Origin: a virus
Direction: 5' to 3' (one strand)
IMG/VR virus record: IMGVR_UViG_3300027892_000003
DNA length: 31,656 nucleotides
Below, one piece after another: positions 4,889-31,263 of this stretch. Under the pieces are notes generated by a model. It was not told the DNA's origin. It saw only the letters and a list, made by a program, of their open reading frames with translations, and made no database searches. How positions within the stretch are numbered: position 1 is the first letter of the stretch; every line of letters begins with the position of its first letter. A program made the translations under genes and the position numbers.

Positions 4889-4992
4889 CCGGGGGGGCAA
4901 AATCTTCCCAGATTTCAAAGCCGGAAACCGGTCGGTTGCACAAAAAATAACGCTAACACAGTTTCTCGCCCATGCGCGCGGAGGGGTCATCG

Positions 4993-5463
4993 ATGCCACG
5001 CAAGCAGAGGGTCGATAGCGCCACCGCACACGTCAAGATCGTGCAAGCGGCCAACTTGGAATTGGCCCCGCCGAAGCATGTTCCGCTGATCAAAAACGAT
5101 ATGCCGTTCTGGCAGACGGTGATCGCTGAAAAGCCAAAAGCTGAGTGGACGCCGCACGATCTGGAGTTTGCCGCGCACCTGGCCGCATCGATGCGCAAGC
5201 TGGGTGAGCAAGAGGCCGAGCTGGAACGCGAGGGGCCGGTTTACACAACCGCTGGTGGCAACATGGCGCAGAATCCGCGTTGCCGTGTGGTTGCCGATCT
5301 GGCCGCGCGGGTGCTGAAATATCGGCAGACGTTGGGCATTCACAACCGTGCCAAGGAAGGCGAGGCGCGTGACGTGGCCAAGCGCCGGGGGCAGGCCAAG
5401 GCGGTTGAGGCTGGCGCATCGGTTGCTGACGATCTGATTGCCCGCGCACCCGCTTTGCACTAA
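4993..5463 (+). CDS. terS: Terminase small subunit, P27 family
   Basis: GGAGGGG RBS before ATG 4993. Motifs: LAPPKHVPL...FWQTVIAE...WTPHDLEFAAHL...NPRCRVVADLAARVLKYRQTLGIHNRAK. Position between the HNH gene and terL. Confidence 0.75.
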   Translation: MPRKQRVDSATAHVKIVQAANLELAPPKHVPLIKNDMPFWQTVIAEKPKAEWTPHDLEFAAHLAASMRKLGEQEAELEREGPVYTTAGGNMAQNPRCRVVADLAARVLKYRQTLGIHNRAKEGEARDVAKRRGQAKAVEAGASVADDLIARAPALH

Positions 5464-5529
5464 AACAGACGAAGCCCGGAAGCGTTGGAGCGCAACCGGG
5501 CCTCTAATCCACAACCTGTAGGAGCAGGC

Positions 5530-6558
5530 ATGGACTACCACCGGATTTACCGCGAATTCATTGCTGACCGCAAGGCCAACTCAAGGCCGGATGGCTACAC
5601 GGAACGACATCACATTTTGCCAAGGTCGCTTGGCGGTGACAATTCATCTAGCAATCTGATTGACCTGACTGCCGAGGATCACGTTTTTGCACACGTCTTG
5701 CTGGCCAAGATGCATGGCGGCGTCATGTGGGCGCCGGTCATTGCAATCTTTGGCCAGACGATAGCGCGGCGCATACCGACGCGGCGCGAAATCAGATTGT
5801 TTGCCCTAGCACGCCAGAAGTCGCGCGAGGCCATGAAGGGGGCGGGCAATCCGTTTTACGGTCGCCGGCACTCAACTGAACTGGTTGAGGCAATGCGCGA
5901 TGGCACGGTTTACGAGTTGTCTGACGGCAAGCGCGTTGTTGGCGGCACCCGGCATGAGCTGGTTGAAATAACCGGAGTGGATTTGCCTAACATAGCCCGC
6001 TTGGTGGTTGGCGCGCGCAAGAATGCTAAGGGTTGGTATTCAACCGCACACAATCCTGATGGGGTCAGAGGGTCGGCCCTACGCAGCCAAATGTGTCGCA
6101 GCAAAGATGTGGTTGCGCTTTGGCATCACGACGGTAGGCGCTGGGCTGGAACACGGGTTGAGTTCCGTGAGCAGTTTGGTGCGAGGCTATACTTTCAGTC
6201 TGGCGATGGCCATGTCCAAGGTTGGTATCGCAGCGCAGAACAAGCTGCGGGGCATGAGGCAAGGGTGAAGCTAAAAGCCATTGCTGCTGCTGAGGCTCGT
6301 GGCTGCATTGCTGGAAGTCGCAATCCGATGGCTGGCGCTGACCGTCGCAAGGACGCTGCCGTGCATCTGATTGGGCCAGGCGGCGCTGAATACAAAGGAT
6401 CGTTGAAGGCTTTTGCCGACAATCTCGGCATTGGCCCTTCACACTTCGCAACGGTCAAAAAAACCTTTGCGGGAAAGCGTTTTGTTGGTGGCTACCAAGT
6501 CAAAAGCTGGAAAGGCTGGCGCGCCGTCGCGTTCCGACAAGGTGATCCGCTTCATTGA
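5530..6558 (+). CDS. Free-standing HNH homing endonuclease with NUMOD3-like repeats
   Basis: AGGAG RBS before ATG 5530. HNH core: HHILPRSLGGDNSSSNLIDLTAEDHVFAH. NUMOD3-like motifs: GAGNPFYGRRHS and GSRNPMAGADRR. Hand counts on 60-nt samples give about 45 to 57 percent GC, below the flanking genes. It lies between terS and terL. Confidence 0.8.
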   Translation: MDYHRIYREFIADRKANSRPDGYTERHHILPRSLGGDNSSSNLIDLTAEDHVFAHVLLAKMHGGVMWAPVIAIFGQTIARRIPTRREIRLFALARQKSREAMKGAGNPFYGRRHSTELVEAMRDGTVYELSDGKRVVGGTRHELVEITGVDLPNIARLVVGARKNAKGWYSTAHNPDGVRGSALRSQMCRSKDVVALWHHDGRRWAGTRVEFREQFGARLYFQSGDGHVQGWYRSAEQAAGHEARVKLKAIAAAEARGCIAGSRNPMAGADRRKDAAVHLIGPGGAEYKGSLKAFADNLGIGPSHFATVKKTFAGKRFVGGYQVKSWKGWRAVAFRQGDPLH

Positions 6559-8032
6559 GCGATACTGCCTCACGCCCGAAGGAGCAGACGTTGGCAAGCC
6601 GCTTAAACTGGCTGATTTTCAGAAGCGGTTTATCAAGGAAATTTACGACAACCCGCACGGCACCCGCCGCGCTTATTTAAGCATCGGGCGCAAAAACGGG
6701 AAGTCGGGCCTCACAGCCGCGCTGTTGCTGGCGCACCTGGTCGGGCCAGAGGCCAAACAGAACAGCCAGATTGCCAGCGGCGCGCGATCAAGAGAGCAGG
6801 CCAGCGTCATCTTTGAACTGGCCAAGAAGATGGTGATGATGTCGCCGGAACTGTCCGGCATTGTTCGCATCATCCCTTCAGGCAAGCGCCTGATCGGCTT
6901 GCCCATGAACGTTGAATACCGGGCGCTTGCGGCTGAAGGCTCTACTGCACATGGGCTTTCTTTGGCGCTGGCCCTGCTGGACGAAGTTGGCCAGATCAAA
7001 GGGCCAAAAGACGATTTCGTTGACGCTATTACCACATCGCAAGGCGCACATGACGCGCCGCTTCTGATTGCCATTTCAACGCAAGCGCCGACCGATGGCG
7101 ATCTGTTTTCCATATGGCTTGATGACGCCAAAAACAGCCAGAACCCGGCGATTGTCTCGCACGTCTACAGTGCGCAGGACGATTGCGATCTGATGGACAA
7201 GGTGGCGTGGAAGGCTGCCAACCCGGCAATGGGTTTGTTTCGTTCTGAGGAAGATATTGCCGATCAGGCAGAGCGCGCGATGCGGCTGCCGTCTGAAGAA
7301 GCTACGTTCCGCGTTCTGACACTCAACCAGCGCGTCAACCCGTTCAGCCCGTTTTTGTCGCGGTCGGTTTGGGAAGCGAACAGCGCCGCGCCGGATGATG
7401 AGGCGTTCAGGTTTGGCGAAGTCTACGGCGGCCTTGATCTGTCGCAGACCACCGACTTGACCGCGTTTGTTTTGGTCGCGCGCTACAATGGCCGGTTTCA
7501 CGTCAAGCCGTGGTTCTTCATGGCCGAGGGGCTGGTGCCAGAAAGGGCGCGGGCTGACCGGGTGCCGTATGATGTTTGGCATAAGCAGGGGCTGATCGAA
7601 GCCACGCCGGGCCGGGTAGTGGCGCTGGATTGGGTGGCGGCCAAGATCGCAGAGGTAACGACCGGGCTGCCGGTAAAGGCCATAGCGTTTGACCGCTGGC
7701 GGATGCCGGGCCTGATGCTTGAGATTGACCGGCTAGGGCTGGCGTTGCCGTTGCAGGAATACGGCCAGGGTTACGCCAGCATGTCGCCGGCAGTCGCGGC
7801 GCTTGAAGAGGCGGCGTTGCAGGAATTGATGCAGCACGGTGGTCATCCGGTGCTGAATATGTGCGCCGGCAATGCGGTTGCGATCCGCGACCCTGCCGGG
7901 AACAGGAAACTCGATAAGGCGCGTTCGACAGGCCGCATTGACGGCATCGTGGCGCTTGCGATGGCAATGGGAGTGGCGGCTATGAACAAGGAAGAGCCAG
8001 CCGCCAGCACGCCCATGCTGCGGGTGCTGTAA
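6488..8032 (+). CDS. terL: Terminase large subunit (HK97 gp2-like, Terminase_1 family)
   Basis: From DKVIRFIERYCLTPEG...LSIGRKNGKSGL...LLDEVGQ...ISTQA...TLNQRV...FDRWR...RKLDK the sequence follows my recollection of HK97 gp2 almost motif for motif. There is no ATG start. Candidates are GTG 6542, GTG 6488, TTG 6482/6485 and TTG 6413, so the start is uncertain. The stop at 8032 is firm. Confidence 0.93.
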   Translation: MATKSKAGKAGAPSRSDKVIRFIERYCLTPEGADVGKPLKLADFQKRFIKEIYDNPHGTRRAYLSIGRKNGKSGLTAALLLAHLVGPEAKQNSQIASGARSREQASVIFELAKKMVMMSPELSGIVRIIPSGKRLIGLPMNVEYRALAAEGSTAHGLSLALALLDEVGQIKGPKDDFVDAITTSQGAHDAPLLIAISTQAPTDGDLFSIWLDDAKNSQNPAIVSHVYSAQDDCDLMDKVAWKAANPAMGLFRSEEDIADQAERAMRLPSEEATFRVLTLNQRVNPFSPFLSRSVWEANSAAPDDEAFRFGEVYGGLDLSQTTDLTAFVLVARYNGRFHVKPWFFMAEGLVPERARADRVPYDVWHKQGLIEATPGRVVALDWVAAKIAEVTTGLPVKAIAFDRWRMPGLMLEIDRLGLALPLQEYGQGYASMSPAVAALEEAALQELMQHGGHPVLNMCAGNAVAIRDPAGNRKLDKARSTGRIDGIVALAMAMGVAAMNKEEPAASTPMLRVL

Positions 8033-12167: not shown

Positions 12168-12373
12168 TGCGTTTTGGGCTGTCCTTGGCAATTGGTGCGC
12201 AAACCCGCGCATCGGGTGACGGTGGCCAGGAGCCTACGCTGGTCCTAGATTTTGTGGGCGGCAATGAGCGGTATGGGGCAACGCTCAATTTGGACTTCAC
12301 CGGCCAGACATACACCGCCTTCACCGCCGATCCAGCCGGGCAAGGCTTTCCGAACTTCTGGGCTTGGAGCTAA
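12167..12373 (+). CDS. Small hypothetical protein with two LxLDF motifs
   Basis: TAATG coupling to the upstream gene. The 68-aa product contains PTLVLDFVGGNERYG and ATLNLDFTGQTYTA. Confidence 0.5.
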   Translation: MRFGLSLAIGAQTRASGDGGQEPTLVLDFVGGNERYGATLNLDFTGQTYTAFTADPAGQGFPNFWAWS

Positions 12374-12375
12374 CT

Positions 12376-13575
12376 ATGCCTTTGACCAACTACGCCTTCG
12401 CTGATTTGATCACGTTCACGCGCTCCACCACGGCTACGTTTGTGGGTAGCAATGGCCTGATCCAGTCTGCGGCGATCAACGCCCCCCGCTTCGACTTTAG
12501 CCCCGTCACGCTGGCCCCGTTGGGCTTTCTGATTGAGGAGCAGCGGGTCAACTCGGCGTTGTACTCGGAGCAATTTGACAACGCCGTATACATCAAAGTT
12601 CGCTCAAGCATCACCACTAACGCTACGACTTCACCTGATGGAACTGCAACAGCAGATAAATTGGTAGAAGATACAACCGCGACAAACACCCATTTGATCC
12701 AACTGCAAGGCGGGTTTTCATCGTTTGTTTCAGGGACTACGTATGTAATTTCTGGATACGCTAAAGCTGGCGAAAGAACCTCTGCTTCCATAAACCTGGG
12801 GACGGACGGCGGGGTTTTTGCAGGCCAAAGCGCAAACTTTGATTTCAGCACGGGCGCTATTAGCGCGCAATCTGGCGTTGCTACCTTTGCAATGACTAAC
12901 GCTGGCAACGGCTGGTATCGCTGGTCTATCGCCGCTACGGCAGCAGCGTCAGGTGTCGCCTTTCTCCGTTTTTCACTTATTGGGCCATTGGGCAGTAATA
13001 TCTACACCGGAGACGGCACCTCTGGCTTGTTTCTTTGGGGCAACCAACTTGAAGTCGGCGCGTTTCCCACCAGCTACATTCCCACCGTGGCTTCCACGGT
13101 CACGCGCGCGGCTGACGTGGCTGTGATATCGGGGGCAAATTTCACCCCGTGGTACAACCAGAGCGAGGGGACGATTATCGCAAGTTGGTCAACGACCGAC
13201 GCTGTAGTCCCATTGGCTCTCGGCGTATTTAGTGTATCAAACGGAACAACAGCGGAGGGTATTCAAATTCGCCGCATAGCCGGCTCAAATGATGTAAGAT
13301 TTATCGTAATCGACGGCGGCGCTACGCAATATTTTAGCGCAATTGCGGCGTCTTCCGGTGTAAACATAAGCGCGCTTGCATATAGAACGAACGATTTTAT
13401 CGGCGCAAACAATGGGACTCTTGGAACCGCTGACACTAGCGGAACCCTTCCAACAGTTACACAAGCCGAAATTGGTTTTGGGCAAGATCTGACATATCTC
13501 AACGGTCGCCTCCGCAACGTCACCTATTACCCCACCCGTCTCACCGACGCACAGCTACAGGCACTCACCGTATGA
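12376..13575 (+). CDS. Head spike / fibre protein (phage head-spike-fibre-like N-terminus, divergent low-GC distal domain)
   Basis: GGAG precedes ATG 12376. The N-terminus LITFTRSTTATFVGSNGLIQSAAINAPRFDF...GFLIEEQRVN is the conserved anchor I associate with alphaproteobacterial spike/fibre proteins. The remainder is Thr/Ser/Gly-rich and about 48 percent GC. Confidence 0.6.
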   Translation: MPLTNYAFADLITFTRSTTATFVGSNGLIQSAAINAPRFDFSPVTLAPLGFLIEEQRVNSALYSEQFDNAVYIKVRSSITTNATTSPDGTATADKLVEDTTATNTHLIQLQGGFSSFVSGTTYVISGYAKAGERTSASINLGTDGGVFAGQSANFDFSTGAISAQSGVATFAMTNAGNGWYRWSIAATAAASGVAFLRFSLIGPLGSNIYTGDGTSGLFLWGNQLEVGAFPTSYIPTVASTVTRAADVAVISGANFTPWYNQSEGTIIASWSTTDAVVPLALGVFSVSNGTTAEGIQIRRIAGSNDVRFIVIDGGATQYFSAIAASSGVNISALAYRTNDFIGANNGTLGTADTSGTLPTVTQAEIGFGQDLTYLNGRLRNVTYYPTRLTDAQLQALTV

Positions 13576-15289: not shown

Positions 15290-15293
15290 TCAC

Positions 15294-15707
15294 ATGGCAA
15301 ACGATCCAACTGCCGCAATCGCTGCGGCGGTTTTCGCACGCCTGGCCGGCATCACATACACCGAAGGCGGCGTGACGCTTGCGGTGCCGGTTTACCAGCG
15401 TGCGCCCGATGAAGTGCTGCCGGCAATCGTGGTTGTCGATGGCGTGGATTTGCAGCCCAGCGAGAGCAAGGACGCCACCCCGCGCCGCGCCAGTGTGAGC
15501 ATCGTTACGATCTACCGTGGCCGCAGCAAGCCCAGCGCGCAGGCCATCGTGGGCAGGGTGTTCAACCTTCTGGAAGGCCACAAGCTGACAGTTGCCGGGT
15601 TTTCCGTGTCCGAGTGCAGGCTGCAAGCAAGCGGCGTTGGTGAAGAAGTGACCGATGCCAACCTTGTGCATGTTGGTCGGCAAACCTTTGATCTAATTAT
15701 TCTTTAA
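15294..15707 (+). CDS. Tail terminator-like protein (DUF3168-like)
   Basis: ATG 15294 lies just after the upstream TGA (15287..15289). 137 aa, positioned just before the major tail protein. The N-terminus AAIAAAVFARLAGI... resembles the DUF3168 family. Confidence 0.6.
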   Translation: MANDPTAAIAAAVFARLAGITYTEGGVTLAVPVYQRAPDEVLPAIVVVDGVDLQPSESKDATPRRASVSIVTIYRGRSKPSAQAIVGRVFNLLEGHKLTVAGFSVSECRLQASGVGEEVTDANLVHVGRQTFDLIIL

Positions 15708-15719
15708 GGAGCGTCACTC

Positions 15720-16136
15720 ATGGCCAAGCTGTCATCTAACGATTACCGCGTTTTCATCGACACTGCGTCTGTCTTTAGCGCCGTTGGCGGCCAGATCAGC
15801 ACGACTGTGGATCGCGGCGAGACTTCGTTCAGCGCCATCGACAAGGCGTCTGTCGTTGAAGTGACGGGCCGTGCGATGCGTAACTACAGCGTTGCGCTGG
15901 AATACCGCCCCGATCTGCCAGACACGGCGGGTCATTCGCGCCTCGAAACTGTTTACGCCAGCGGCGCGGCCATTGGCGTTCAAGTCCGCAAGTCACCTTT
16001 TGCCGTGGGTGACGTGGTGTTTGCCTGCTCCATGCGGGTGGCAAGCATGAACACCGGCAGCCCACTGAACGATGTGAACACGATCAACGCGGCATTCACG
16101 CCGGTTGCTGCCCCCACCACTGACACGCTGGCATAA
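15720..16136 (+). CDS. Major tail (tube) protein, paralog 1
   Basis: AAGGAG RBS. 138 aa. It lies between the tail terminator and chaperone genes, and its size and pattern resemble GTA/TP901-1-type tube proteins. Confidence 0.8.
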   Translation: MAKLSSNDYRVFIDTASVFSAVGGQISTTVDRGETSFSAIDKASVVEVTGRAMRNYSVALEYRPDLPDTAGHSRLETVYASGAAIGVQVRKSPFAVGDVVFACSMRVASMNTGSPLNDVNTINAAFTPVAAPTTDTLA

Positions 16137-16148
16137 GGAGCTTTTGCA

Positions 16149-16565
16149 ATGGCTAAACTTTCATCAAACGAATATCGCGTGCGCGTTGACAGCGCCACGC
16201 CTGGCACCTTTGCCGAGGTCGCTGGCCAGATCAGCGTTACGCTGGATCGCGGCGAAACCTCGTTCAGCACTATCGACAAGTCTGCGGTGGTTGAAACCAC
16301 CGGGCGCGCGATGCGCAACTACAGCCTGTCGCTTGAGTATCGCCCCGATCTGCCCGATGCGGCAGGCCACACGCGCCTTGAAACGATCTTTGCCAGCGGT
16401 GCGGCCACGGTCATTCAGGTGGTCAAGACCGGCACGCCTACGGTGGTTTTCGCCTGCTCAATGCGCGTTGCGTCGATGAACACCGGCAGCCCGCTGAATG
16501 ACGTGAACACCATCAATGTTGCGTTCACGCCTGTCGCTGCGCCGTCCACCGATGTGCTGGTCTAA
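16149..16565 (+). CDS. Major tail (tube) protein, paralog 2 (tandem duplicate)
   Basis: AAGGAG RBS. 138 aa, and by eye roughly 70 to 75 percent identical to the 15720..16136 product. Both start MAKLSSN and both end ...VVFACSMRVASMNTGSPLNDVNTIN.AFTPVAAP.TD.L. Confidence 0.8.
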   Translation: MAKLSSNEYRVRVDSATPGTFAEVAGQISVTLDRGETSFSTIDKSAVVETTGRAMRNYSLSLEYRPDLPDAAGHTRLETIFASGAATVIQVVKTGTPTVVFACSMRVASMNTGSPLNDVNTINVAFTPVAAPSTDVLV

Positions 16566-16568
16566 CCA

Positions 16569-16829
16569 GTGATTGATAAGCTGGGCCGCGCGCCTTCAGG
16601 CTATGCCGATGCGGTGCTGGATCGCATCGGCACCACCCCGCGCGATGCACTGACCGGCCCGCTGCCGCCAGGCTTTGGCGTCATGGCCGCAATCGCTGCG
16701 CCGCTGCTTCGTCACAAGGCCACCGTTCCTGAACTGGCCAGCGCAATGGCGGCAGAGGCGGGCGAATGGACGTGGCGCGCGGCGCTGCTTGATGCAATCG
16801 CAACCAACGAAACGGTGATTGATGACTGA
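16569..16829 (+). CDS. Hypothetical protein in the tail module
   Basis: GTG start 3 nt after the upstream TAA. GC-rich third codon positions. No motif. Confidence 0.45.
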   Translation: MIDKLGRAPSGYADAVLDRIGTTPRDALTGPLPPGFGVMAAIAAPLLRHKATVPELASAMAAEAGEWTWRAALLDAIATNETVIDD

Positions 16830-17235
16830 GCCAAACACACGCGGCGAAGTGACAATTGATCTGGACGCCACCTATGTGATGCGCCCGTCTTATGAAGCCA
16901 TTGAGGCGATTGAGACGGCGACCGGGCGCGGTGTGGTGGCGCTGGTCAATCTGGCGGCACAGGGCGAACTGAGCCTGAAAAACGCCGCCATCATCGTGAC
17001 TGAGTGCATCCGCGCATGGGGCAAGCAGCAGGCGGCAAACGGCAACGATCAGCCCGAAGCGCGTTCAGCAACTGGCGCACGGCCTGAAAAGGTGGCGCGG
17101 CTGATCCACGAACATGGGCTGGTGCAGGCCACCGAGCGTTGCGCCATTGTGCTGATGGCAGCCGCGACCGGCGGCGTGACGGCATCGGGGGAGTGGAAGC
17201 CGGTGACGGAAACGGCGACCCCCGTCGCCGGCTGA
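16822..17235 (+). CDS. Tail assembly chaperone (GTA gp10-like, Phage_TAC_11)
   Basis: GEVTIDLDATYVMRPSYEAIEAIETATGRGVVALVNLAAQGELSLKNAAIIVTECI matches the GTA gp10-type pattern (GEV.L.L.G..Y.LRPSF.AL..IE...G.....L......G.LSL.D...). It lies upstream of the tape measure gene. Confidence 0.7.
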   Translation: MTEPNTRGEVTIDLDATYVMRPSYEAIEAIETATGRGVVALVNLAAQGELSLKNAAIIVTECIRAWGKQQAANGNDQPEARSATGARPEKVARLIHEHGLVQATERCAIVLMAAATGGVTASGEWKPVTETATPVAG

Positions 17236-17351: not shown

Positions 17352-19286
17352 ATGGCTGAAGATGTGCAGCGCCTGCTTTTGCAGATTGACGCCAGCGCCA
17401 CCCTGTTGCGGCAGGAAGTCACCAAGGCGCGCAACGATATTGATGGCTTTGCTTCCGGTGCCGAACGCCGCCTATCTGGGTTAGAAGGCGCATTTTCTGG
17501 CCTTGGTCGTGGGGCAGGGGTGGCTGCCCGTGCGCTTGGTGGCATGGCGGGGGGCTTTTTGGCTGTAGGTCAAGCCGCCGCTCTTGCTGTGAATGCTACC
17601 CGCGAAATGCAACGTCTAACTGCGCAGCTTGAAGTTGCGACGGGCAGTAGTGCGGCAGCGGGCGCAGCATTCAATGACCTAACTAAGTTTGCCGCAGAAA
17701 CACCCTATACGCTGGCACAGGTAACTGAGGCTTACATTAAGCTGAAAAACCTTGGCATTGACCCAACAGAAGAACGCCTTCGTTCGTTTGGTAACACCAG
17801 CGCGGCGATGGGTAAGGATTTGATGCAGTTTATTGAGGCTGTCGCTGACGCCTCAACCGGCGAGTTCGAACGTCTAAAAGAGTTTGGCATCCGCGCCAGC
17901 AAGGAAGGCGACAAGGTGCGCTTTACCTTCCAAGGCGTGACCAAAGAGGTTCAGTTTAACGCCAACGCCATCACAAACTATCTTGAGGAAATCGGTCGCA
18001 CCAAGTTTGGCGATGCTATGGCGAAGCAGGCCGCTACGATTGATGGCAAACTATCAAATCTTGAAGATGCTACTGCCAAACTAGGCCGCGCGCTGGGCGG
18101 TCTTGGGATCGGCAACGCAACAGGCGCAGGGATTCAATTTCTTACTAACCTGATTAATGACGCCGCCGATGCAACAAAAGGGCTAGGCGATGGGCTAACA
18201 ACGTTGGCAAAAGCTGCGGCTGAGTTGTTTGACCGCGCAGCGGGTGTTGACGCCCCTCGCCAGCGTGGCCCGTCTGCCGAAACTATAGCGGAACGCCGCA
18301 AACGTGAAGAAGGCGTTATTCAGCAATTACCGCGCGGCAGCGCCATTCGCGGCCAGATGGAGGACGAATACCGCACACGCTATGGCCTAAACGCTGATGC
18401 TGCGCTGTTTGAAGAACCTGAAATTGAAGTTGCGTTTAGCCGCAGCAAATTTGCCAAACGGGAAGCCGCCGCCAACAAGGCGAGGATAGCAACGGAAAAG
18501 GCAACGCGGGACGCGCTGAACAATCGCCGCAAAGGCATGACTAACCGCATTGATGTGCTAGAAAGCCTAGGGCTTTCGCCAGAGACAACAAGGCGCGAAA
18601 CTCAACTGGTTAAAGATCAATTTGAGGGCAAGCCAGTTGACTTTGCGACTCGCGCTGTTCGTGGCGATTTCGACAGTCCTATTAGTGATCCCGTTCAAGC
18701 GTTTATGCAGGCACAAATGCCGATTGCACAAATTAAGGTCGATATGACCGCAATCGAAAAGTCTGTGGCTGGCATTAGCTCAGTGAAGTTGATCAGCGCA
18801 GAGTCGGTAGCGTTTGCCGATGATTTTTCCAAAAACCTTACAAGCGGGCTTTCGCAGGCGATTATCTACGGCCAGAGCCTTGGCGATGCGCTGGTAAACA
18901 GCATCAAAGCCGCTGCTGCGGAATTGGTTGCGTCTGGGCTGCTAAATCTGCTGTCAGGTGGGAAGCGTGGCACTAGCTTTGGCGACAGCCTGAGCGCGCT
19001 GGGTAGCATCTTTGGCGGTGCGCGCGAAACCGGCGGCAGCGTCATGCCGGGCAAAGCCTATGTGGTCGGCGAAAAGCGCCCTGAATTGTTTGTGCCATCA
19101 AGCGCCGGTTACATCATGCCGCGTGTGCCGAGCGGGCAGGGCGGCGGCGGGCAGCAGTCGGTAAACGTGACGGTCAATCCGTCGCCGCTGTTCATCACCA
19201 CGGTGGCGCAAGGCGCACAGGCGGCAGCACAAGAGACGCTGCGCAAATCCACGCGCCAGCGGATGCCCATGTCGGCGGGGGTGTAA
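17352..19286 (+). CDS. Tail tape measure protein
   Basis: 644 aa, Ala/Gly-rich and helical. It carries the tape-measure N-terminal domain motif FAAETPYTLAQVTEAYIKLKNLGIDPTEERLRSFGNTSAAMGKDLMQFIEAVADASTGEFERLKEFGIRA. Confidence 0.9.
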   Translation: MAEDVQRLLLQIDASATLLRQEVTKARNDIDGFASGAERRLSGLEGAFSGLGRGAGVAARALGGMAGGFLAVGQAAALAVNATREMQRLTAQLEVATGSSAAAGAAFNDLTKFAAETPYTLAQVTEAYIKLKNLGIDPTEERLRSFGNTSAAMGKDLMQFIEAVADASTGEFERLKEFGIRASKEGDKVRFTFQGVTKEVQFNANAITNYLEEIGRTKFGDAMAKQAATIDGKLSNLEDATAKLGRALGGLGIGNATGAGIQFLTNLINDAADATKGLGDGLTTLAKAAAELFDRAAGVDAPRQRGPSAETIAERRKREEGVIQQLPRGSAIRGQMEDEYRTRYGLNADAALFEEPEIEVAFSRSKFAKREAAANKARIATEKATRDALNNRRKGMTNRIDVLESLGLSPETTRRETQLVKDQFEGKPVDFATRAVRGDFDSPISDPVQAFMQAQMPIAQIKVDMTAIEKSVAGISSVKLISAESVAFADDFSKNLTSGLSQAIIYGQSLGDALVNSIKAAAAELVASGLLNLLSGGKRGTSFGDSLSALGSIFGGARETGGSVMPGKAYVVGEKRPELFVPSSAGYIMPRVPSGQGGGGQQSVNVTVNPSPLFITTVAQGAQAAAQETLRKSTRQRMPMSAGV

Positions 19287-19287
19287 A

Positions 19288-19908
19288 ATGGCAATTATCG
19301 ACTTTCCCGCTGGCATCCCCCTGCGCGCCGTCAACTGGCGGCAATCGGGCGGCGTTGTCCGCAACCGCAGCGAGTTCACCGGCAAGACGCGCGAACTGCG
19401 CATTGGGCCGAGCGCAAGGTGGACGTGCGATCTGGATTTCGTGCCGACGAACAGCGTAAGCGCGCTGAACCTCTTGCGCGAGTTCCTGGCTGATATGGCG
19501 CAGCCCGGTGATGGGTTCCGCCTGCAAGCTGTTGAAGCCGCGCAGGCTGTCTCTCCGGTGCCGGTGACGTGCCTGGTCAATGGTGCCAACCAGCTTGGGC
19601 AAACGCTCAATCTGGATGGCCTGCAAGCCAGCGTTACGAATCTCCCTGCCGGTGCGATGATCTCTGTCCCGATCACGACCGATGACCGACAGCTATTCGT
19701 GCTGCGCAGCGCCTTGACCGCCAATGCCAGCGGGCAGGCGGCGGCAACGCTGGCAACCCCCTTGCGCGGCCCACCGGCTGACAACGCTGTGGTGCAGATT
19801 CATTTTCCGGTTGCGGCCATGCGGCTGAGTGACAGCGCAATCAACTGGGCCGTGTCGCCGGGCGGCGTCTATGACTTCCAGCGTTTGACGGCAGAGGAGT
19901 TTTTCTGA
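19288..19908 (+). CDS. Minor tail / distal tail protein
   Basis: First ORF after the tape measure gene, 206 aa, tightly packed. Called by position; no named motif. Confidence 0.55.
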   Translation: MAIIDFPAGIPLRAVNWRQSGGVVRNRSEFTGKTRELRIGPSARWTCDLDFVPTNSVSALNLLREFLADMAQPGDGFRLQAVEAAQAVSPVPVTCLVNGANQLGQTLNLDGLQASVTNLPAGAMISVPITTDDRQLFVLRSALTANASGQAAATLATPLRGPPADNAVVQIHFPVAAMRLSDSAINWAVSPGGVYDFQRLTAEEFF

Positions 19909-20537: not shown

Positions 20538-20956
20538 GGCTGTCCACCCGTCACCCTGATTGGGAGCCGCGCCTTGCCGCGTGCGTCGAGGATTGGACGG
20601 CGCGCGAATACAGCTTTGCTTGGGGCTGCGATTGCGTGGCCTTCGTGCTGGCCGGCATTGAGGCGGTTGCAGATGAGCGGCTGACCTTTGACGGTGCCAC
20701 GCCTTACCGCAGCGCAGCGGGGCAAGGGCGCTGGCTCAAGGAGATGGGCTGGGGTTCACTGCTTGATGCTGCTGATGCCACGCTAGGGTCTCGCATTGGC
20801 CCGTTGCAGGCGCACCGAGGTGACGTGATCAGCGACGGCAGCGCGCTTGGCCTGATGACAGCAGCCGGGCCGCTTGTGTTCAGCGAGGGCGGCATGGTGG
20901 CGATTGAACGCGGCAGCATTGTGGCCGCTTGGCCGGTGGGGCGCTCCGATGGGTAA
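20534..20956 (+). CDS. Tail-associated NlpC/P60-like peptidase (GTA g14-like)
   Basis: FAWGCDCVAFVLAGI (Cys) and LQAHRGDVI (His) are spaced as in small phage NlpC/P60 proteins that precede J-like genes. GTGA coupling. Confidence 0.55.
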   Translation: MRLSTRHPDWEPRLAACVEDWTAREYSFAWGCDCVAFVLAGIEAVADERLTFDGATPYRSAAGQGRWLKEMGWGSLLDAADATLGSRIGPLQAHRGDVISDGSALGLMTAAGPLVFSEGGMVAIERGSIVAAWPVGRSDG

Positions 20957-23627
20957 GGCGGTCAAAGCCATTGTCGGCATTGCCATCACTGCGGTTGGCT
21001 TTGTAACCGGCAACGCCGCGCTGTTCCTCGCCGGCCTTTCAATTACGCAGAGCGGCCTCAAACAGGCGCTTGGCCCCTCTGTAAGGTCAACGCTCACCCC
21101 GTTTGACCCAAAGAGCATTAACCCTGATCCGGCATCACCGCGCAAACTGGTCTTTGGCCAGACCACGTTCCCGGTCGATCTGCGTTATGCCGAGCCAAGC
21201 GGCACCAATCAGGAATATATCGATTACATCTTTGCCCTGGCCGCGCACAAATCGGACGCCATCAGCGAAATCTACATTGAGGATGATCTTGCATGGACAG
21301 TGGGCGGGGGCGCTCAAGGCAAATACGTTGGTTATCTGACTGTCGAGGTCATTCTAGAAGCCGGCAGCGGCGCATATCACACCGTGAACGCCGGGACGAT
21401 CTGGGGCAGCAGCACGCGGATGACGGGCTGCACCACAATGAAGGTGCGCGTGAAGCGCAGCGACAACAGCAAGACAAGCCAATCACCGTTTAGCAGCGGA
21501 ATCAATGGGCGTTGGGCTGTCATCGGGCGCGGCATTCCGGTTTATGATCCGGCGCTTGACAGCACCGTGCCGTATGGGCCGACATTAAATTTAGACTTTA
21601 TTAACCAGACTTACGCTGCCGGTAGTGGCACACAGCGCGCCGCCAATCAAACCACATGGGCTTACACCGCAGGCACAGCGCGCGGCAACAATCCGGCGCT
21701 GCAACTGCTTACATATCTGTTGGGCTGGCGCATTGGCGGCGTTGTGTCGGTCGGCTGCGGCCTGCCTGTTGATACGATTGATTTGCCATCGTTCGCCATC
21801 GCTGCTGCGTTGTGCGATGAAAGCGTTGCGCTTGCCGCTGGTGGTTCGCAGCGCCGCTATGAAGCGGGCCGCGCCTTTGCTGACAGTGATGATCCGCTGG
21901 CCGTGATCCGCACGCTGCTGGACGCCATGAACGGCGAACTGGTTGATGACGGCGGTCGGCTTTCGCTGCGGCTTGCAGTCAACGATCTGACGCCTTCGTT
22001 CACAATTACCGATGATGATTTTGTCAGCGGCTATTCGTGGAAGCCTGCCGCACCGATTGAGCAACAACACACCGTGGTGCGTGGCCGTTACAGCGCACCA
22101 GGCGCAACTCTGTATGGCTTGGTAGATTATCCCGAAGTCGCCATTGCGCGCACGTCGATTGCCCCGCGTCCGCTGACCCTTGAACTTAGCGCCGTTCAAG
22201 ACCCGCGCCGTGCCGAGCGCATCGCCAAACAAGCGGCCCAGCGCAACCTCTATCAAGGCACGTTCGCCGTCACGCTAGGCGTGCGTGGCTGGTTGCTGCG
22301 GCGCAACATGGTGGTTGCTGTAACATCGTATGCGCGCGGGTGGACGGCCAAGCTGTTCCGCGTCCGGTCGCTGGGCTTCAATGCAGACGCGACGGTTGAG
22401 GTTGTGCTGCGGGAAGAAAATGCGGCCATCTATGCGTGGTCGGCCAGCGAGAGCGCACAGGTCACGCCGGTCGCGCCCGTCGTGTTTGACAGCCGGGCGG
22501 CTGCAAGCTGGCTGATGGCGGATATTGAGCCTGGTGCAGATGTTACTAGCGCCAACACTTCCGCCAACAGCAACGCGCTGGGCGGCACGCCAGCGGCAAC
22601 GGTGGCAACAAACATCACCACCGCCGGAACCACTGCGCTCTGGCCAAGTGTCACCGGCACAGGCCGCCCTGCTGATTATGCGGATGTGACCGCCGATGCG
22701 CTGGTGACGCTGCGCCGGGGTGATTGGCAATCCGGCGTCACCTATCTGCGCGGGCAAAGCGTGGTGCGCAACCGCAGCAGTTATGTGTCGCTGGTGAATC
22801 ACAGCAGCAGTGCCGGCAACGGCCCGCCCGGCGCAAACTGGGGCCTGGTCGCCGATGGGGGCGTTGATGGCACAAACGGCACGAACGGGGCAAATGGTGC
22901 GCCTGGGGCCAACGGCACTAACGGCACGAACGGGACGCCCGGAACCAATGGCATTGACGGCATTGACGGCATAGACGGAAAGCTGGTTGAATTTATCTGG
23001 CGGCGCGCGGCGTCGGTTCCTGCCACGCCCACAGGCAACGGCATCCCGGCAGGCTGGAGCGACAACCCGCCCGCTGGCAGCGATCCGCTGTGGATGAGCC
23101 GAGGCAAACAGGAACTTGATGGCACGCTGATCGGCACATGGTCTGCGCCGATCCGCCATGATGGCCCGCCTGGTGCAACAGGTGCAACCGGGCCTGCTGG
23201 GGCCAACGGCGCAAATGGTGCGCCCGGCGCAACTGGTGCAACAGGCGCAACTGGCGCGCAAGGGCCAACCGGCGTTGCAGCTCCTCCGATCAAATCACTC
23301 TCAACCGGCGCGGCACAGCTTGACCCGATCCGCTTGGTGAATGGCCAGACGGTGACGGCAGCGGCTGAACTCTATCTCAACACTGGCGGCGTGTCTGGCG
23401 TGTGCAGCTTAACATTGCAGATCAGTGAATCCGGCGCGGGCAGTTGGGCGACGATGACCAGCGGCACTGTGACCGACAGCCAGCCCACCAGTGAGGCGGT
23501 TGAACTAGTGATCACGGGCGCAACCTTCACCAACAGCGGCGCAGATCGGCTGTTTGATATTCGCGCAATCTCCACGCGGCAGTCTCGTTCAGTGAACGTG
23601 CCGCTGTCCTATGTGCGAGTGATTTGA
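20949..23627 (+). CDS. Host specificity / central tail fibre protein (J-like) with collagen-like repeats
   Basis: 892 aa from ATG 20949. Hydrophobic N-terminal segment (AIVGIAITAVGFVTGNAALFLAGL). J-like core (FGQTTFPVDLRYAEPSG...YIFALAAHKSDAISEIYIEDD). CBM5/12-like motif (WQSGVTYLRGQSVVRNRSSYVSLVNH...PPGANW). Two Gly-X-Y blocks. Confidence 0.85.
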   Translation: MGKAVKAIVGIAITAVGFVTGNAALFLAGLSITQSGLKQALGPSVRSTLTPFDPKSINPDPASPRKLVFGQTTFPVDLRYAEPSGTNQEYIDYIFALAAHKSDAISEIYIEDDLAWTVGGGAQGKYVGYLTVEVILEAGSGAYHTVNAGTIWGSSTRMTGCTTMKVRVKRSDNSKTSQSPFSSGINGRWAVIGRGIPVYDPALDSTVPYGPTLNLDFINQTYAAGSGTQRAANQTTWAYTAGTARGNNPALQLLTYLLGWRIGGVVSVGCGLPVDTIDLPSFAIAAALCDESVALAAGGSQRRYEAGRAFADSDDPLAVIRTLLDAMNGELVDDGGRLSLRLAVNDLTPSFTITDDDFVSGYSWKPAAPIEQQHTVVRGRYSAPGATLYGLVDYPEVAIARTSIAPRPLTLELSAVQDPRRAERIAKQAAQRNLYQGTFAVTLGVRGWLLRRNMVVAVTSYARGWTAKLFRVRSLGFNADATVEVVLREENAAIYAWSASESAQVTPVAPVVFDSRAAASWLMADIEPGADVTSANTSANSNALGGTPAATVATNITTAGTTALWPSVTGTGRPADYADVTADALVTLRRGDWQSGVTYLRGQSVVRNRSSYVSLVNHSSSAGNGPPGANWGLVADGGVDGTNGTNGANGAPGANGTNGTNGTPGTNGIDGIDGIDGKLVEFIWRRAASVPATPTGNGIPAGWSDNPPAGSDPLWMSRGKQELDGTLIGTWSAPIRHDGPPGATGATGPAGANGANGAPGATGATGATGAQGPTGVAAPPIKSLSTGAAQLDPIRLVNGQTVTAAAELYLNTGGVSGVCSLTLQISESGAGSWATMTSGTVTDSQPTSEAVELVITGATFTNSGADRLFDIRAISTRQSRSVNVPLSYVRVI
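22860..22979 (+). repeat. Collagen-like Gly-X-Y block 1 (13 triplets; ends in 3 x ggcattgac-type 9-bp repeats)
   Basis: GVDGTNGTNGANGAPGANGTNGTNGTPGTNGIDGIDGIDG, read from codons in frame with 20949. Confidence 0.9.
23163..23279 (+). repeat. Collagen-like Gly-X-Y block 2 (13 triplets)
   Basis: GPPGATGATGPAGANGANGAPGATGATGATGAQGPTGVA, read from codons in frame. Confidence 0.9.
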
Positions 23628-23687: not shown

Positions 23688-23891
23688 ATGACGGCACAGC
23701 CCAGCCATGCCGATTTGGCAGTCTCAATTGCGCGCTTGGAAGAACGCCTCGATGCGCTTGACGCCAAGATCACGCCGGTCAGCGAGGTCTATCAAGCGGC
23801 GAAAGTGGGCGGCAATTTGCTGAAATGGCTGGTGGGTATGCTGGCAGCCATTGCGGGGATTGCGGCGTTTATTTGGGGTGCGCCCAAGTGA
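23688..23891 (+). CDS. Small coiled-coil protein with a C-terminal transmembrane helix
   Basis: GGAGAG RBS before ATG 23688. Coiled-coil segment LAVSIARLEERLDALDAKI, then hydrophobic segment LLKWLVGMLAAIAGIAAFIWG. Confidence 0.55.
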   Translation: MTAQPSHADLAVSIARLEERLDALDAKITPVSEVYQAAKVGGNLLKWLVGMLAAIAGIAAFIWGAPK

Positions 23892-25060
23892 GCATTACGC
23901 TTGCGCGCAATTTGACAGAGGTTGATCCAGCGCAGGATGCCGCGATTGCTGATCTGGCTGAACGCCTTGGCAGCATGAACAAAGCCGCTGCCGAGTTGAA
24001 CGTCAGCCGCGCAGCAGTGCAGAACGCCTGCCATCGGCATCAGCGCCGCACTGGTGACTTCACAGGCGGCATCCCTGCCTCGCCGGAACGTGACGGCGGC
24101 GGTGCCTATGTCGTCAAAGGGGTTTCGACCTACTTTGACGCGGACGGCAACCAGCGCGGGCAGTGGGTAAAAACCAGCCTCGATCAAGAGCGCCGTGATG
24201 AGGCAATCCGCGCTGCGTTTGAGGCGATGGCTGCTGACTTGCCGCGCGCCGATCCTGTTGCGTCGCCTAGCGTCACGTCTGCGCTGCTGTGCAACGTCTA
24301 CACTTTTACCGATTACCACATGGGGATGCTGGCCTGGCACAAAGAGGGCGGCGCTGATTGGGATATCGGCATTGCCTCGCGGGTGCTTGACGGTGCGTTT
24401 GCCGCTATGGTTGCCGGTGCGCCTGCTGCTGATACGTGCGTGATCGCACAGCTTGGCGACTTCCTGCATTATGACGGGCTGGTTGCCGCCACCCCTACCA
24501 GTGGCCACCCGCTTGACGCAGACGGGCGCTTTTCCAAGATGGTGAGCGCCACCATCAAGGCGCTGCGTGGGTTGGTTGACCGGGCATTGCTGAAGCATCG
24601 CCGCGTCATTGTTCTGATGGCCGAGGGCAACCACGATTTGGCATCGTCGGTATGGCTGCGGCACATGTTCAAGGCGCTCTACGAACATGAGCCGCGCGTT
24701 GAGGTCATCGACAGCGAACTGCCTTATTACGCCTTTGAGTTTGGCTCGATCATGCTGGGCTGGCACCATACGCACCTTTCCAAAATGGACGGCCTGACAA
24801 GCATATTTGCTGCGCAATTCCGGGCAATGTGGGGGCGGTGCAGCAAGGTTTATCTGCATACCGGGCATCTGCATCACCGCCGCCTGAAGGAAGATGGCGG
24901 GGCGATTGTGGAGCAGCACCCAACGCTATCGGCAAAGGACGCCTACAGCGCGCGCGGCGGCTATCATGCCGAGCGGGCGGCCATTGGCATCACATACCAC
25001 GCACAGTTTGGCGAAGTCGCGCGCAACACCGTGCGGCCCGAAATGCTGGAGGCAGCATGA
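23888..25060 (+). CDS. HTH-fused calcineurin-fold metallophosphoesterase (Mre11/SbcD-like motif set)
   Basis: The GTG start overlaps the upstream TGA (GTGA). N-terminal HTH-like segment MNKAAAELNVSRAAVQNACHRH. The five MPE motifs then appear in order: FTDYHMG, LGDFLHYD, AEGNHD, GWHHTH, HTGHLHH. The long antisense ORF 23792..24919 has no motifs. Confidence 0.75.
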   Translation: MSITLARNLTEVDPAQDAAIADLAERLGSMNKAAAELNVSRAAVQNACHRHQRRTGDFTGGIPASPERDGGGAYVVKGVSTYFDADGNQRGQWVKTSLDQERRDEAIRAAFEAMAADLPRADPVASPSVTSALLCNVYTFTDYHMGMLAWHKEGGADWDIGIASRVLDGAFAAMVAGAPAADTCVIAQLGDFLHYDGLVAATPTSGHPLDADGRFSKMVSATIKALRGLVDRALLKHRRVIVLMAEGNHDLASSVWLRHMFKALYEHEPRVEVIDSELPYYAFEFGSIMLGWHHTHLSKMDGLTSIFAAQFRAMWGRCSKVYLHTGHLHHRRLKEDGGAIVEQHPTLSAKDAYSARGGYHAERAAIGITYHAQFGEVARNTVRPEMLEAA

Positions 25061-25233
25061 ACACGCTCGACGCCCTGGACGCGCTGCACAAAGCGTATGA
25101 AGCCCGCGATGCCGCGCGTGACCGCGCTGTGGCCGAGGTCGAGCGCCAGTTCGCCGGCATTATCAAGCGCAGGCAGCAGGAATTTCAGGACGCCATCAGG
25201 CGCGCGACGGGGGCCGACACATGCAATGGATGA
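25057..25233 (+). CDS. Small coiled-coil hypothetical protein (58 aa)
   Basis: ATGA overlap with the upstream stop. Translation starts MNTLDALDALHKAYEARDAARDRAVAEVERQFAGIIKRRQQEF... Confidence 0.5.
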   Translation: MNTLDALDALHKAYEARDAARDRAVAEVERQFAGIIKRRQQEFQDAIRRATGADTCNG

Positions 25234-25721
25234 CAGAAGCGCGCCGCCACATTGGGCTGCGCGAGGTGCCGGGCGGTGCCAGCAACCCGGTAATCATGTC
25301 GTGGGGCAACCGTCTTGGCGCTAAGGTGCTGGGCATTGCTTACGGCAACGATGGGGTGCCTTGGTGCGGTCTGTTTGTAGCTCACTGCATCACCCAGGCT
25401 GGCTTGAAACCGCCGCCCATTGCGATCCGTGCGAAGGCGTGGGCGTCTTGGGGCGATAGCGTCGGCACGACTGCCACGCGCCCGCCGCTGGGCTGTGTCG
25501 CCGTGTTTGGCCGCGACGGTGGCGGTCATGTAGGGTTTGTCGAAAGCGTCAACACGGACGGCAGTCTGAACATCCTTGGCGGCAACCAAGGCGATGCGGT
25601 CAACGTGCGCCGTTTTCCGCGCGCCCGGCTGCTTGATCTGCGCTGGCCCAAGGGCGTGGCGCGGTCATCGCCTGCACCGTGGGCGGGCGCTGCGGCGGCA
25701 GACACAACGGGAGAAGGCTGA
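25230..25721 (+). CDS. Endolysin, CHAP/NlpC-P60-like (TIGR02594-type)
   Basis: GLREVPGGASNPVIMSW...DGVPWCGLFVAHC...GCVAVFGRDGGGHVGFV...LGGNQGDAV matches the TIGR02594 pattern with catalytic Cys and His. ATG 25230 gives an ATGA overlap with the upstream stop; ATG 25221 is also possible. Confidence 0.85.
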   Translation: MTEARRHIGLREVPGGASNPVIMSWGNRLGAKVLGIAYGNDGVPWCGLFVAHCITQAGLKPPPIAIRAKAWASWGDSVGTTATRPPLGCVAVFGRDGGGHVGFVESVNTDGSLNILGGNQGDAVNVRRFPRARLLDLRWPKGVARSSPAPWAGAAAADTTGEG

Positions 25722-30275: not shown

Positions 30276-30968
30276 TTATTCTAAGCGATAGGAGCCAACG
30301 ACAACTGCGATAATGCGTGTCTCAGAAACCAGCGGATCGCCGTTAAATGCATCAATCGGTGCCTGATATTCGGGGTGGCTGCTTTCAGCTACCAGCCACT
30401 TTTTGCCGTCTTCGCCTACAACCAGCTTTTTTATCGTGGCCTCGACCATGCCGTCCAAGCGCCTGCGCTCCACAATTACGCGCTTACCGTTGGCTGGCTC
30501 ATTATCCAAGGCATAAACAGACACACAATCAAGCAACGTGCCAGGTGGATAGCGCAGATTCATGCTTTCGCCATCCACGCGCAATCCAAAGCGATGTGGC
30601 GACCTTACCCGCGTTGCTTCTGGGCTGCCAGTGAAGGTAAACCGATCTTCCTCGGCCCATTCCCATGCTTCATGCCACACGCCTGCTGCAACAGAACCAC
30701 GCACTTCCACGCTCTCCCCCATTGGCACCGCTTGGTCAGCACGCGGTAGGCCAATGAACTCTTGGATGGAGACGCCCGCAAAGCTGGCCAGGATCGCCAA
30801 GTTTTCAGGTTCTGGCATAGAACCTGTCTCCCAGCGAGATACCGACCCCTGACTGACGCCAAACAGCTTGGCAAACTGCCCCTGCGTGAGCTGCTTGGCA
30901 CGGCGTAGCCCAACTATTTTCGTGGCGACAAGTGTTGTCATACCGGTTGCGTAATCGTTGCTGCTCAT
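30276..30968 (-). CDS. cI: CI/LexA-type repressor (XRE HTH + S24 peptidase autocleavage domain)
   Basis: HTH segment LTQGQFAKLFGVSQGSVSRWETG. LexA-like cleavage site VAAG. Ser/Lys dyad context VDGESM ... TIKKL. The start is probably ATG 30968 or 30941. The 31034 start would overlap cro and the operator. Confidence 0.9.
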   Translation of the reverse strand: MSSNDYATGMTTLVATKIVGLRRAKQLTQGQFAKLFGVSQGSVSRWETGSMPEPENLAILASFAGVSIQEFIGLPRADQAVPMGESVEVRGSVAAGVWHEAWEWAEEDRFTFTGSPEATRVRSPHRFGLRVDGESMNLRYPPGTLLDCVSVYALDNEPANGKRVIVERRRLDGMVEATIKKLVVGEDGKKWLVAESSHPEYQAPIDAFNGDPLVSETRIIAVVVGSYRLE

Positions 30969-30996
30969 ATTCGCAAACTCGCTAACGCATAGGGCG

Positions 30997-31025
30997 TTGA
31001 CATGTCTATGCGCATGCGCATAAAT
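30997..31025 (+). promoter_or_regulatory. Rightward early promoter (PR-like) with an operator palindrome
   Basis: TTGACA (30997..31002), 17 nt, ATAAAT (31020..31025). The perfect 16-bp palindrome TATGCGCATGCGCATA (31007..31022) fills the spacer and -10. The cro ATG is at 31033. Confidence 0.65.
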
Positions 31026-31032
31026 ACGCTCC

Positions 31033-31263
31033 ATGTTTCACGCCCGAAAAATCCGCTGCGACATCCTGAAGATAACGCAGGCCCAACTTGCCGGTTGTCT
31101 CGGTGTTGATCAGGCCGCCGTATCTCGTTGGGAGCGGGCGGAAGGTGCTGGCAGGCCCGTCAACATACGCATTCAACTCGCACTTGATGCGCTGGTTATA
31201 AAAGCCACTGGCCGGTCGATTGTTGAGCATCAGGCTGCCTTAATCGAACAGGCTGCCGCATGA
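31033..31263 (+). CDS. cro: Cro-like XRE-family HTH repressor
   Basis: ITQAQLAGCLGVDQAAVSRWER is an HTH segment. 76 aa, divergent from the CI-type repressor gene. Confidence 0.8.
   Translation: MFHARKIRCDILKITQAQLAGCLGVDQAAVSRWERAEGAGRPVNIRIQLALDALVIKATGRSIVEHQAALIEQAAA

Follow-up and report, generated by a model that had tools for sequence, protein, structure and literature searches.

The phage tail tube is generally regarded as a homopolymer built from a single protein, and the question raised by the locus described here is what a second, closely similar tube gene beside the first could be for. The locus lies in the IMG/VR virus record IMGVR_UViG_3300027892_000003, a stretch of 31,656 nucleotides (nt) that is referred to below as the window. 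Two genes, each with an ATG start and each encoding a protein of 138 amino acids (aa), follow one another head to tail on the + strand, namely copy 1, or type A (15720-16136), and copy 2, or type B (16149-16565). The pair is an ancient tandem duplication of a major tail-tube gene. A preceding reading of the DNA, made from the letters alone and called here the sequence-only reading, had drawn attention to the two genes on the grounds that siphoviruses normally have one tube gene; the generalization is broadly right, but exceptions occur in several clusters of actinobacteriophages (PMC11080557; bioRxiv 10.1101/2020.01.10.891226). A clade with two near-equal tube subunits constitutes a natural system for asking whether the tubes of siphophages can be heteropolymers, and the pair additionally bears on the effect of one surface turn on tail mechanics, stability, and host interaction and on the origin of the fused two-domain tubes of T5 and P74-26. 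The same question arises for the actinobacteriophage clusters with several major tail protein genes. The system is tractable, comprising 138-aa paralogs, a protein family with solved structures (that of the Rhodobacter gene transfer agent, RcGTA, and that of monocin), and a handful of fixed differences. If the second copy is only a spare, the case is ordinary.

An ancient pair of tail-tube genes

Each gene has an AAGGAG ribosome site of its own, the site of copy 1 (15706-15711, +; read from the sequence) lying 8 nt before the ATG and that of copy 2 (16135-16140, +) overlapping the TAA of copy 1 (16134-16136). The gap between the genes is 12 nt and the distance from start to start 429 nt, and the duplicated unit is a ribosome site plus a gene, of about 429-435 nt. 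The two genes are in the same frame, parted by TAA followed by GGA GCT TTT GCA (16134-16151). The proteins are identical at 102/139 aa (73%; BLASTP E=3e-74) and the genes at 296/408 nt (72.5%), and the likeness is therefore far beyond chance. What the sequence-only reading had reported of the two genes was all recovered: two intact but divergent 138-aa open reading frames (ORFs) head to tail, the separate AAGGAG sites, the opening MAKLSSN in both proteins, and the divergent segments VFSAVGG versus TPGTFAEVAG and VRKSPFAVGD versus VKTGTPT.

Both copies are tail-tube proteins of the TP901-1/RcGTA g9 family, as established by profile, predicted fold, and gene position. Copy 2 matches PF06199 (Phage_tail_2) with E=3.7e-5 and 24.2 bits, above the cut-off of 23.8, and copy 1 alone scores 13.2 bits, under the same cut-off; copy 2 additionally matches phrog_1407 “major tail protein” (E=0.0018). 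A family profile comprising both copies and their relatives matches RcGTA g9 over its full length (E=2.4e-16), the monocin tube protein MttP (E=1.4e-21), and SPP1 gp17.1 (E=2e-5). The AlphaFold2 models of copy 2 and copy 1 (predicted local distance difference test scores of 83.9 and 81.0, respectively) have the same order of strands and helix. Briefly, both are predicted to contain strands at residues 27-41, 50-64, 98-113, and 121-128 and a helix at residues 74-83, within an arrangement of four long and four short strands, one helix, and a long hairpin. In a Foldseek search, run with the copy 2 model only, the top matches are solved tail tubes, i.e., those of monocin (E=7e-10, template modeling (TM) score 0.78), phage YDC107, lambda gpV (E=3e-7), and RcGTA (E=1e-6), and the weaker matches include the contractile-system chains 6RAO, 6J0N, and 9QGL. 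RcGTA g9 (Rcc01691; PDB 6TBA) and monocin MttP/FtbG (8QHS, 9J1J) belong to the same family by profile and fold (Foldseek probability 1.00, TM score 0.70-0.79). RcGTA g9 is of about the same length (137 aa) and occupies the same place in the order terminator, tube, chaperones, tape measure, and distal tail protein; the pair in the window likewise sits between the tail terminator gene and the chaperone and tape measure genes. However, RcGTA and monocin have one tube gene each and build homohexameric rings, whereas the window carries two adjacent paralogs.

Protein and locus searches yielded 70 related loci, which are designated below by L numbers. This survey of related phages, a check proposed along with the sequence-only reading, located the pair in about 13 phage or prophage lineages, to which the order terminator, type A, type B, and chaperone is common. 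All loci with a tube protein at least 74% identical to copy 2 have two tube genes in the same order, with a gap of 11-12 nt and TAAGGAG junctions, and the TAAGGAG sites and their spacing are essentially equal for A and B in most lineages. Wherever a type B gene has upstream context (window, L001-L004, L008-L019, and L065-L069), a type A gene lies 11-12 nt upstream, and none of the loci with context had type B in the absence of type A. In eight loci (L005 and L020-L026), type A is the only tube gene; the tail module there is otherwise syntenic, 48-76% identical, and made up of the same set of remaining tail genes as in the paired loci. Type B is 60-79% identical to type A. In the more distant relatives (29-41% identity), one tube gene was found in 40 of 40 cases. 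Among cultured phages, a tblastn search against 50,697 phage records gave one match, 36% identical and single-copy, and blastn of the tail module against phage records gave short tape-measure segments only.

The direction of the change was read from the columns of an alignment that comprised 21 sequences of type A, 20 of type B, and 40 from outgroups. The type-specific states are the replacement of F12 by R and of R92 by V in type B, together with a hairpin turn that is two residues shorter. The outgroups carry the type A state at six of the seven strictly type-specific columns; therefore, type B is the derived copy, and copy 1 (type A) is the ancestral form, able to exist as the sole tube gene. 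The outgroup L006 (Sphingomonas immobilis), for example, has the type A turn RKSPFAVGD. A neighbor-joining tree is compatible with one origin of type B inside a type A grade, its backbone bootstrap values of 8-57 being weak. The A-only state of the eight relatives may be ancestral or may reflect secondary loss; segment-wise distances revealed no clear A/B deletion-chimera signature in the single-copy relatives.

Selection on the pair was assessed with Nei-Gojobori counts. Over the whole gene, copies 1 and 2 differ by 63.7 synonymous and 48.3 non-synonymous differences, corresponding to proportions of differing sites of 0.61 (synonymous, pS) and 0.16 (non-synonymous, pN) and to estimated substitutions per site of 1.24 (dS, near saturation) and 0.18 (dN), with a dN/dS ratio of 0.14. 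In the last 39 codons, the counts are 20.5 synonymous and 7.5 non-synonymous nucleotide differences (dN/dS 0.054); counted by codon, 4 residues of this region are replaced and 34 are identical, 19 of the latter being encoded by different synonymous codons, in agreement with the earlier count of about 20 synonymous against 4 replacement differences. A ratio between paralogs cannot tell which of the two is constrained, and orthologs of each copy were therefore compared. Among the related loci, the ortholog dN/dS is 0.07-0.27 for type A and 0.08-0.26 for type B. In close pairs with unsaturated dS, the values for A and B are 0.19 and 0.19 (window versus L012) and 0.11 and 0.08 (L016 versus L015), and over the same genome pairs type B evolves more slowly than type A (dN 0.15-0.21 versus 0.20-0.30). 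A dN/dS near 1 for one copy had been named as an outcome that would refute the proposed retention of both; neither copy approaches that value, and both genes are functional. The view that both copies have been kept under long purifying selection is thus borne out by the ratio between the copies as well as by those among the orthologs of each. A recent duplication or an assembly artefact was rejected as the source of the pair, given the near-saturated synonymous sites and the repeated occurrence of both genes in assemblies independent of one another.

Differences and exchange between the copies

The fixed differences between the two types are confined to one residue pair in the strand at residues 9-14 and to the hairpin turn at residues 92-98. 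Codon 12 encodes Phe in copy 1 (15753-15755, +), as in type A and the outgroups, and Arg in copy 2 (16182-16184, +), a derived state present in 20 of 20 type B sequences. The type A turn, RKSPFAVGD, occupies residues 90-98 of copy 1 (15987-16013, +), is conserved as RK[SA]PFxxGD in all type A sequences, and recurs in outgroups. The type B turn, VKTGTPT, occupies residues 92-98 (16422-16442, +) and is conserved as VK-x-GTPT; it is shorter by the two residues mentioned above and has lost the ancestral Arg and Asp.

The position of these sites on the tube was approached through predicted secondary structure and alignment to the two solved homologs. The RcGTA paper assigns to g9 a long loop at residues 35-57, a short loop at 113-117, and, between them, a central helix at 72-82; the terminator is bound by the N-terminus together with the short and β2-β3 loops, and the long loop makes the contacts from ring to ring and from ring to distal tail protein. 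By residue alignment, these contact segments map to residues 1-8, about 36-58, and 114-120 of the proteins in the window, where they are identical or nearly so between the copies. The counterpart in g9 of the turn at residues 92-98 is, by alignment, a tight turn (residues 95-99) within the core sheet. Furthermore, Cys104 of monocin, which belongs to the outer β-sheet of the upper layer at the ring-ring boundary, aligns to position 88 of the window tube proteins. The strand that leads into the turn corresponds in this alignment to the monocin strand bearing Cys104, and the turn, so placed, probably lies on the outside or the rim of the ring.

The two genes have exchanged sequence while these differences persisted. 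In L012 (513-1358), an IMG/VR contig from a close relative, the copies share identical runs of 45 and 29 nt, and over the middle third the pS between them is only 0.35, the mark of a tract that underwent gene conversion recently. Copy 1 of this genome has acquired the copy 2 residues STIDKSAVVETTG and TRLETIF. In each third of the gene, A-B distances within a genome are smaller than those across genomes (13 genomes, permutation p<0.001, uncorrected for shared ancestry), and lineage-specific residues are often common to both copies, such as EVNFSNIDK and MNFG in L066, L068, and L069 and ATMNAGKPLNDVVNVTAAF in L001. The type-specific sites have survived this homogenization, which points to selection for difference at those sites.

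The C-terminal part of the proteins presents a further contrast. In the last 40 codons of the paralogs (16014-16136 versus 16443-16565; L001:9570-10417), the two proteins are nearly identical, with a pN of 0.08-0.09 in the window and in L001, at a codon mismatch of 0.56-0.61 against a random expectation of 0.61-0.63. The orthologs between lineages have more protein difference (pN 0.15-0.27) and less synonymous difference over the same codons. Conversion followed by clock-like decay predicts the opposite order. In L001, seven derived residues within these 40 codons are common to both copies. The contrast between paralogs and orthologs, which involves only about 30 synonymous sites, is suggestive, and might be caused by co-evolution at an interface that the two proteins share. 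There was no sign that selection had added to the synonymous divergence of the copies, the codon mismatch being at, not above, the random expectation.

A separate observation concerns L070 (1-582; cf. window 15671-16690), a TARA metagenome scaffold of 582 bp present in two samples, on which one tube gene, of 136 aa, is flanked by the end of a terminator gene and the start of a chaperone gene. The tube gene is type A over its first ~57 codons and type B thereafter, with the crossover in the shared GCGATGCG.AACTACAGC stretch. The gene is either a natural deletion recombinant of the paralogs or an assembly chimera.

Possible roles of the second copy

The account tentatively favored here, with a confidence somewhat short of even, is that both copies would be co-expressed and built into one tube. 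The genes would be transcribed as one operon with equally strong, translationally coupled ribosome sites, and both proteins would be made in bulk. A and B would then polymerize around the same tape measure protein into one tube of mixed rings or a copolymer, in which a share of the subunits would, through type B, have a changed surface on the outside or the rim, with the lumen and the stacking contacts left unchanged. Consistent with this account, the ring-contact segments of the two copies are nearly the same, and A and B of one genome are closer to each other than A and B of different genomes. Candidate benefits may include a stiffer or more stable tail, a binding surface on the exterior, or evasion of host factors that recognize the tube. 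The promoter scan found no promoter-like site in the region, and terminator-like matches numbered 6 against 5.2 expected, with no excess and with the sole + strand match inside copy 1; co-transcription of the pair is therefore likely. The transfer RNA (tRNA) and Rfam scans gave nothing relevant.

Several points weigh against co-assembly. The presence of A and B in the same virion tube is a prediction from sequence, and the assignment of the type-specific sites to the outer sheet or the rim depends on predicted secondary structure and on alignment to two solved homologs. The similarity of A and B within a genome is also expected if they form separate tubes with the same partners, and the permutation test on the distances ignores the kinship of the 13 genomes. 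Moreover, type B is not needed for this kind of tail, as its single-copy relatives indicate, and the ribosome site of copy 2 is weaker in L066, L068, and L069, where it reads AAGGA only. A heteromeric tube, a segmented tube, and alternative tubes, all raised in the sequence-only reading, are each compatible with what was computed.

Known systems provide partial likenesses. Paralogous tube genes are already known in siphophages; in this family of proteins and among hosts of this group, such a pair had not been described. Within one tail operon, two or three genes are annotated as “major tail protein” throughout actinobacteriophage clusters AU, AM, BI, CC, DJ, and EL, a clade-wide conservation like that of the window pair, and examples include Giantsbane gp18/gp23, Damascus gp17/gp19, and DizzyRudy gp17/gp19/gp20 (PMC11080557; bioRxiv 10.1101/2020.01.10.891226). 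In Microbacterium phage DizzyRudy (MK814756; L071:5783-9803), gp17, gp19, and gp20 are true paralogs over an N-terminal domain of ~215 aa with 42-51% identity, and they have differing C-terminal extensions and no Pfam match. The likeness is nevertheless one of arrangement, not of family: the actinobacteriophage paralogs belong to another protein family and to phages of Gram-positive hosts and are not always adjacent, and the DizzyRudy proteins are at least twice as long and differ mainly in their long C-terminal extensions (286, 586, and 255 aa). The two window proteins, by contrast, are equally long and are set apart by a single hairpin turn plus a few residues. Literature searches on heterohexameric siphophage tubes or tandem tube paralogs found nothing, and no mechanistic explanation for paralogous major tail proteins was found in the literature on the precedents. 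JBD30 and Sf11 were tried as paired-tube precedents and rejected, each having a single tube gene. In SPP1, the gp17.1 of which is a distant homolog, a single gene reportedly gives rise through frameshifting to two tube species, gp17.1 and gp17.1*, which assemble together into one tube, a finding credited to Auzat and colleagues in 2008. There, gp17.1* is gp17.1 lengthened at its C-terminus by a +1 frameshift, whereas the window has two equal-length genes, each complete and with its own start codon and ribosome site.

A stricter version of co-assembly has A and B in obligate mixed rings, e.g., alternating A3B3, as a two-gene intermediate toward the fused tubes of T5 and P74-26, and is considered unlikely. 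Under such an arrangement, the co-variation of the two proteins within a genome despite randomized synonymous sites would be co-evolution of a shared interface, not gene conversion. T5 pb6 and the P74-26 tube protein derive from a duplication of the tube domain, as in the window, but the domains are fused and form trimeric pseudo-hexameric rings (PMC5717097; PMC10034513); the fused domains of both are far more diverged, being 16% identical in P74-26, whereas the copies in the window are separate genes and 73% identical. Two domains in one polypeptide are absent from the window pair, the genes of which are parted by the TAA at 16134-16136. Of 13 lineages, 10 (the window plus 9 of the 12 others) have the A and B genes in one frame, so that one base change at the TAA would fuse them, and a gap of 11 nt breaks the frame in the remaining three. 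A fused two-domain tube relative was not found among 1.84 billion representative proteins; P0063, the only two-stretch match in the fusion search, was rejected as a single domain with an insertion. Programmed readthrough or fusion of the pair was likewise rejected in view of the broken frame in 3/13 lineages and the lack of a fused homolog.

Alternatively, each paralog could build a complete homotypic tube, giving two kinds of virion or a mixture set by expression. This account is considered unlikely, and with it the proposed benefit, i.e., that differing exteriors would hedge against differences in the host surface or against defences that recognize the tube. It is consistent with the location of the fixed differences outside the axial-contact segments of RcGTA, with strong ribosome sites on both genes, and with the same-genome similarity, which a fit of both tubes to the same partners would also give. 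However, phages with type B only would be expected, and none was found among the loci with context, although A-only phages exist; in addition, the promoter and terminator scans found no regulatory element between or around the genes that could act as a switch.

Type B could also form a specialized minor ring, i.e., a single ring or a small number of rings adjoining the distal tail protein or the terminator, with A making up the bulk of the tube, in the manner of the tube initiators of contractile systems; this is rather doubtful. Ring-specific paralogs with the tube fold are common, and the stopper, terminator, tube, and distal tail proteins of RcGTA share the fold. Furthermore, type B depends on the presence of type A, and baseplate chains of Afp and PVC are among the Foldseek matches. 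The contractile initiators (T4 gp48/gp54, Afp5, and Pvc5) resemble type B as extra tube-fold paralogs beside the main tube gene; however, they are deeply diverged and form low-copy baseplate rings, whereas the members of the window pair are similar, still exchange sequence, and belong to a non-contractile tail. B is 60-79% identical to A, in contrast to an identity below 19% among the specialized RcGTA paralogs, and has a ribosome site as strong as that of A in most lineages, and A and B have nearly the same long loop, the element in contact with the distal tail protein. The terminator and the distal tail protein are encoded by separate genes, and the A-only relatives have the same remaining tail genes; the architecture therefore needs no second tube-fold ring. 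The suggestion in the sequence-only reading that one copy serves as terminator or tip-proximal ring thus fails as to the terminator, which has its own gene (15291-15707), and is weakened as to the tip ring by the separate distal tail gene and by these single-tube relatives.

It is improbable that the second copy serves dosage only, with interchangeable products of two genes supplying more of a protein needed in well over 100 copies per virion, although the tube protein is the most abundant tail component and gene conversion between the copies occurs. R12, V92, and the short turn are fixed in 20/20 type B and 0/21 type A sequences despite saturated synonymous divergence and conversion, which indicates selection for difference, not for amount, and more protein could be had more simply by strengthening the promoter or the ribosome site.

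A role of B outside the virion, e.g., as a decoy for a defence that senses tail tubes or as an assembly regulator, is speculative and very improbable. Tail-tube proteins trigger at least one defence system, DSR2, and the type-specific changes are few and probably located on the surface, which would suit such a role. By contrast, B is strongly constrained, keeps everything expected of a working tube subunit (all contact segments, the strands that line the lumen, and the full length), and is the slower of the two copies, and no defence or anti-defence context was seen. Finally, the idea that one copy is the tail terminator is dismissed despite the tube fold that terminators share, since a PF11367/phrog_176 gene lies immediately upstream and neither copy matches the terminator families in Pfam and PHROG profile searches; separate genes (15291-15707 and 19288-19908) fill the terminator and distal-tail roles, which were rejected for either copy.

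The tail module and neighboring genes

The window phage is a temperate, long-tailed phage (siphophage), probably of Sphingomonas-like bacteria. The closest genome match is a prophage in a metagenome-assembled genome of Sphingomonas paucimobilis, and a CI/LexA-like repressor with HTH_3 and Peptidase_S24 domains is encoded at 30276-31034 (−); the element is therefore temperate. The tail module is GTA-like or HK97-like and resembles that of the RcGTA, with the gene order adaptor, head closure, Neck1, terminator, A, B, chaperones, tape measure, and distal tail protein.

The connector genes begin with the head-tail adaptor (from 13903), followed by head closure (from 14463) and Neck1 (from 14804). 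The tail terminator, of 138 aa from the ATG at 15291 (15291-15707, +), matches PF11367 (Tail_completion_gp17) with E=1.2e-5 and 25.8 bits against a cut-off of 24.5 and phrog_176 “tail terminator” with E=5.8e-8. Its TAA (15705-15707) overlaps the ribosome site of copy 1, and a dedicated terminator directly upstream of the tube genes is kept in all related loci. Downstream of the pair are two overlapping ORFs for tail assembly chaperones (16569-16829 and 16819-17235, +), placed as in the related loci, the second of which matches PF11836 (Phage_TAC_11, GTA-gp10; E=5.5e-8). The tape measure protein, of 644 aa (17352-19286, +), was assigned from tblastn synteny with orthologs in related loci that contain PF20155 (TMP_3), and also from DNA matches to annotated tape-measure genes. 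Tails measure ~1.5 Å per residue of the tape measure protein, and 644 aa thus correspond to a length on the order of 100 nm. The distal tail protein, of 206 aa (19288-19908, +; phrog_1302 “distal tail protein,” E=1.7e-21), forms the separate ring from tube to baseplate.

Further downstream, a host-specificity-type tail protein of 917 aa (20874-23627, +; PF13550) contains collagen triple-helix repeats near residues 764-800 (PF01391, E=1.2e-10). The tail genes are followed by a DNA repair exonuclease-like gene (23825-25060, +; phrog_704, E=5.5e-119) and by a CHAP-domain lysin at 25221-25721. Upstream, an HNH/homing-endonuclease-like ORF (5485-6558, +; phrog_655, E=1.6e-36) is located between the small terminase (4972-5463) and the large terminase (6413-8032). 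A 403-aa ORF (12364-13575, +), between the capsid region and the head-tail connector genes, matches phrog_5939 “tail protein” (E=8e-87) and has no Pfam match; its position is odd for a tail-fibre-like gene, and the product could be a head fibre or a decoration protein. In L001 and L003, several large unannotated ORFs occupy the corresponding place. Between the window and L001, the S. paucimobilis prophage, the tail module is 44-78% identical and the major capsid protein 27%; therefore, the head and tail modules have been exchanged independently.

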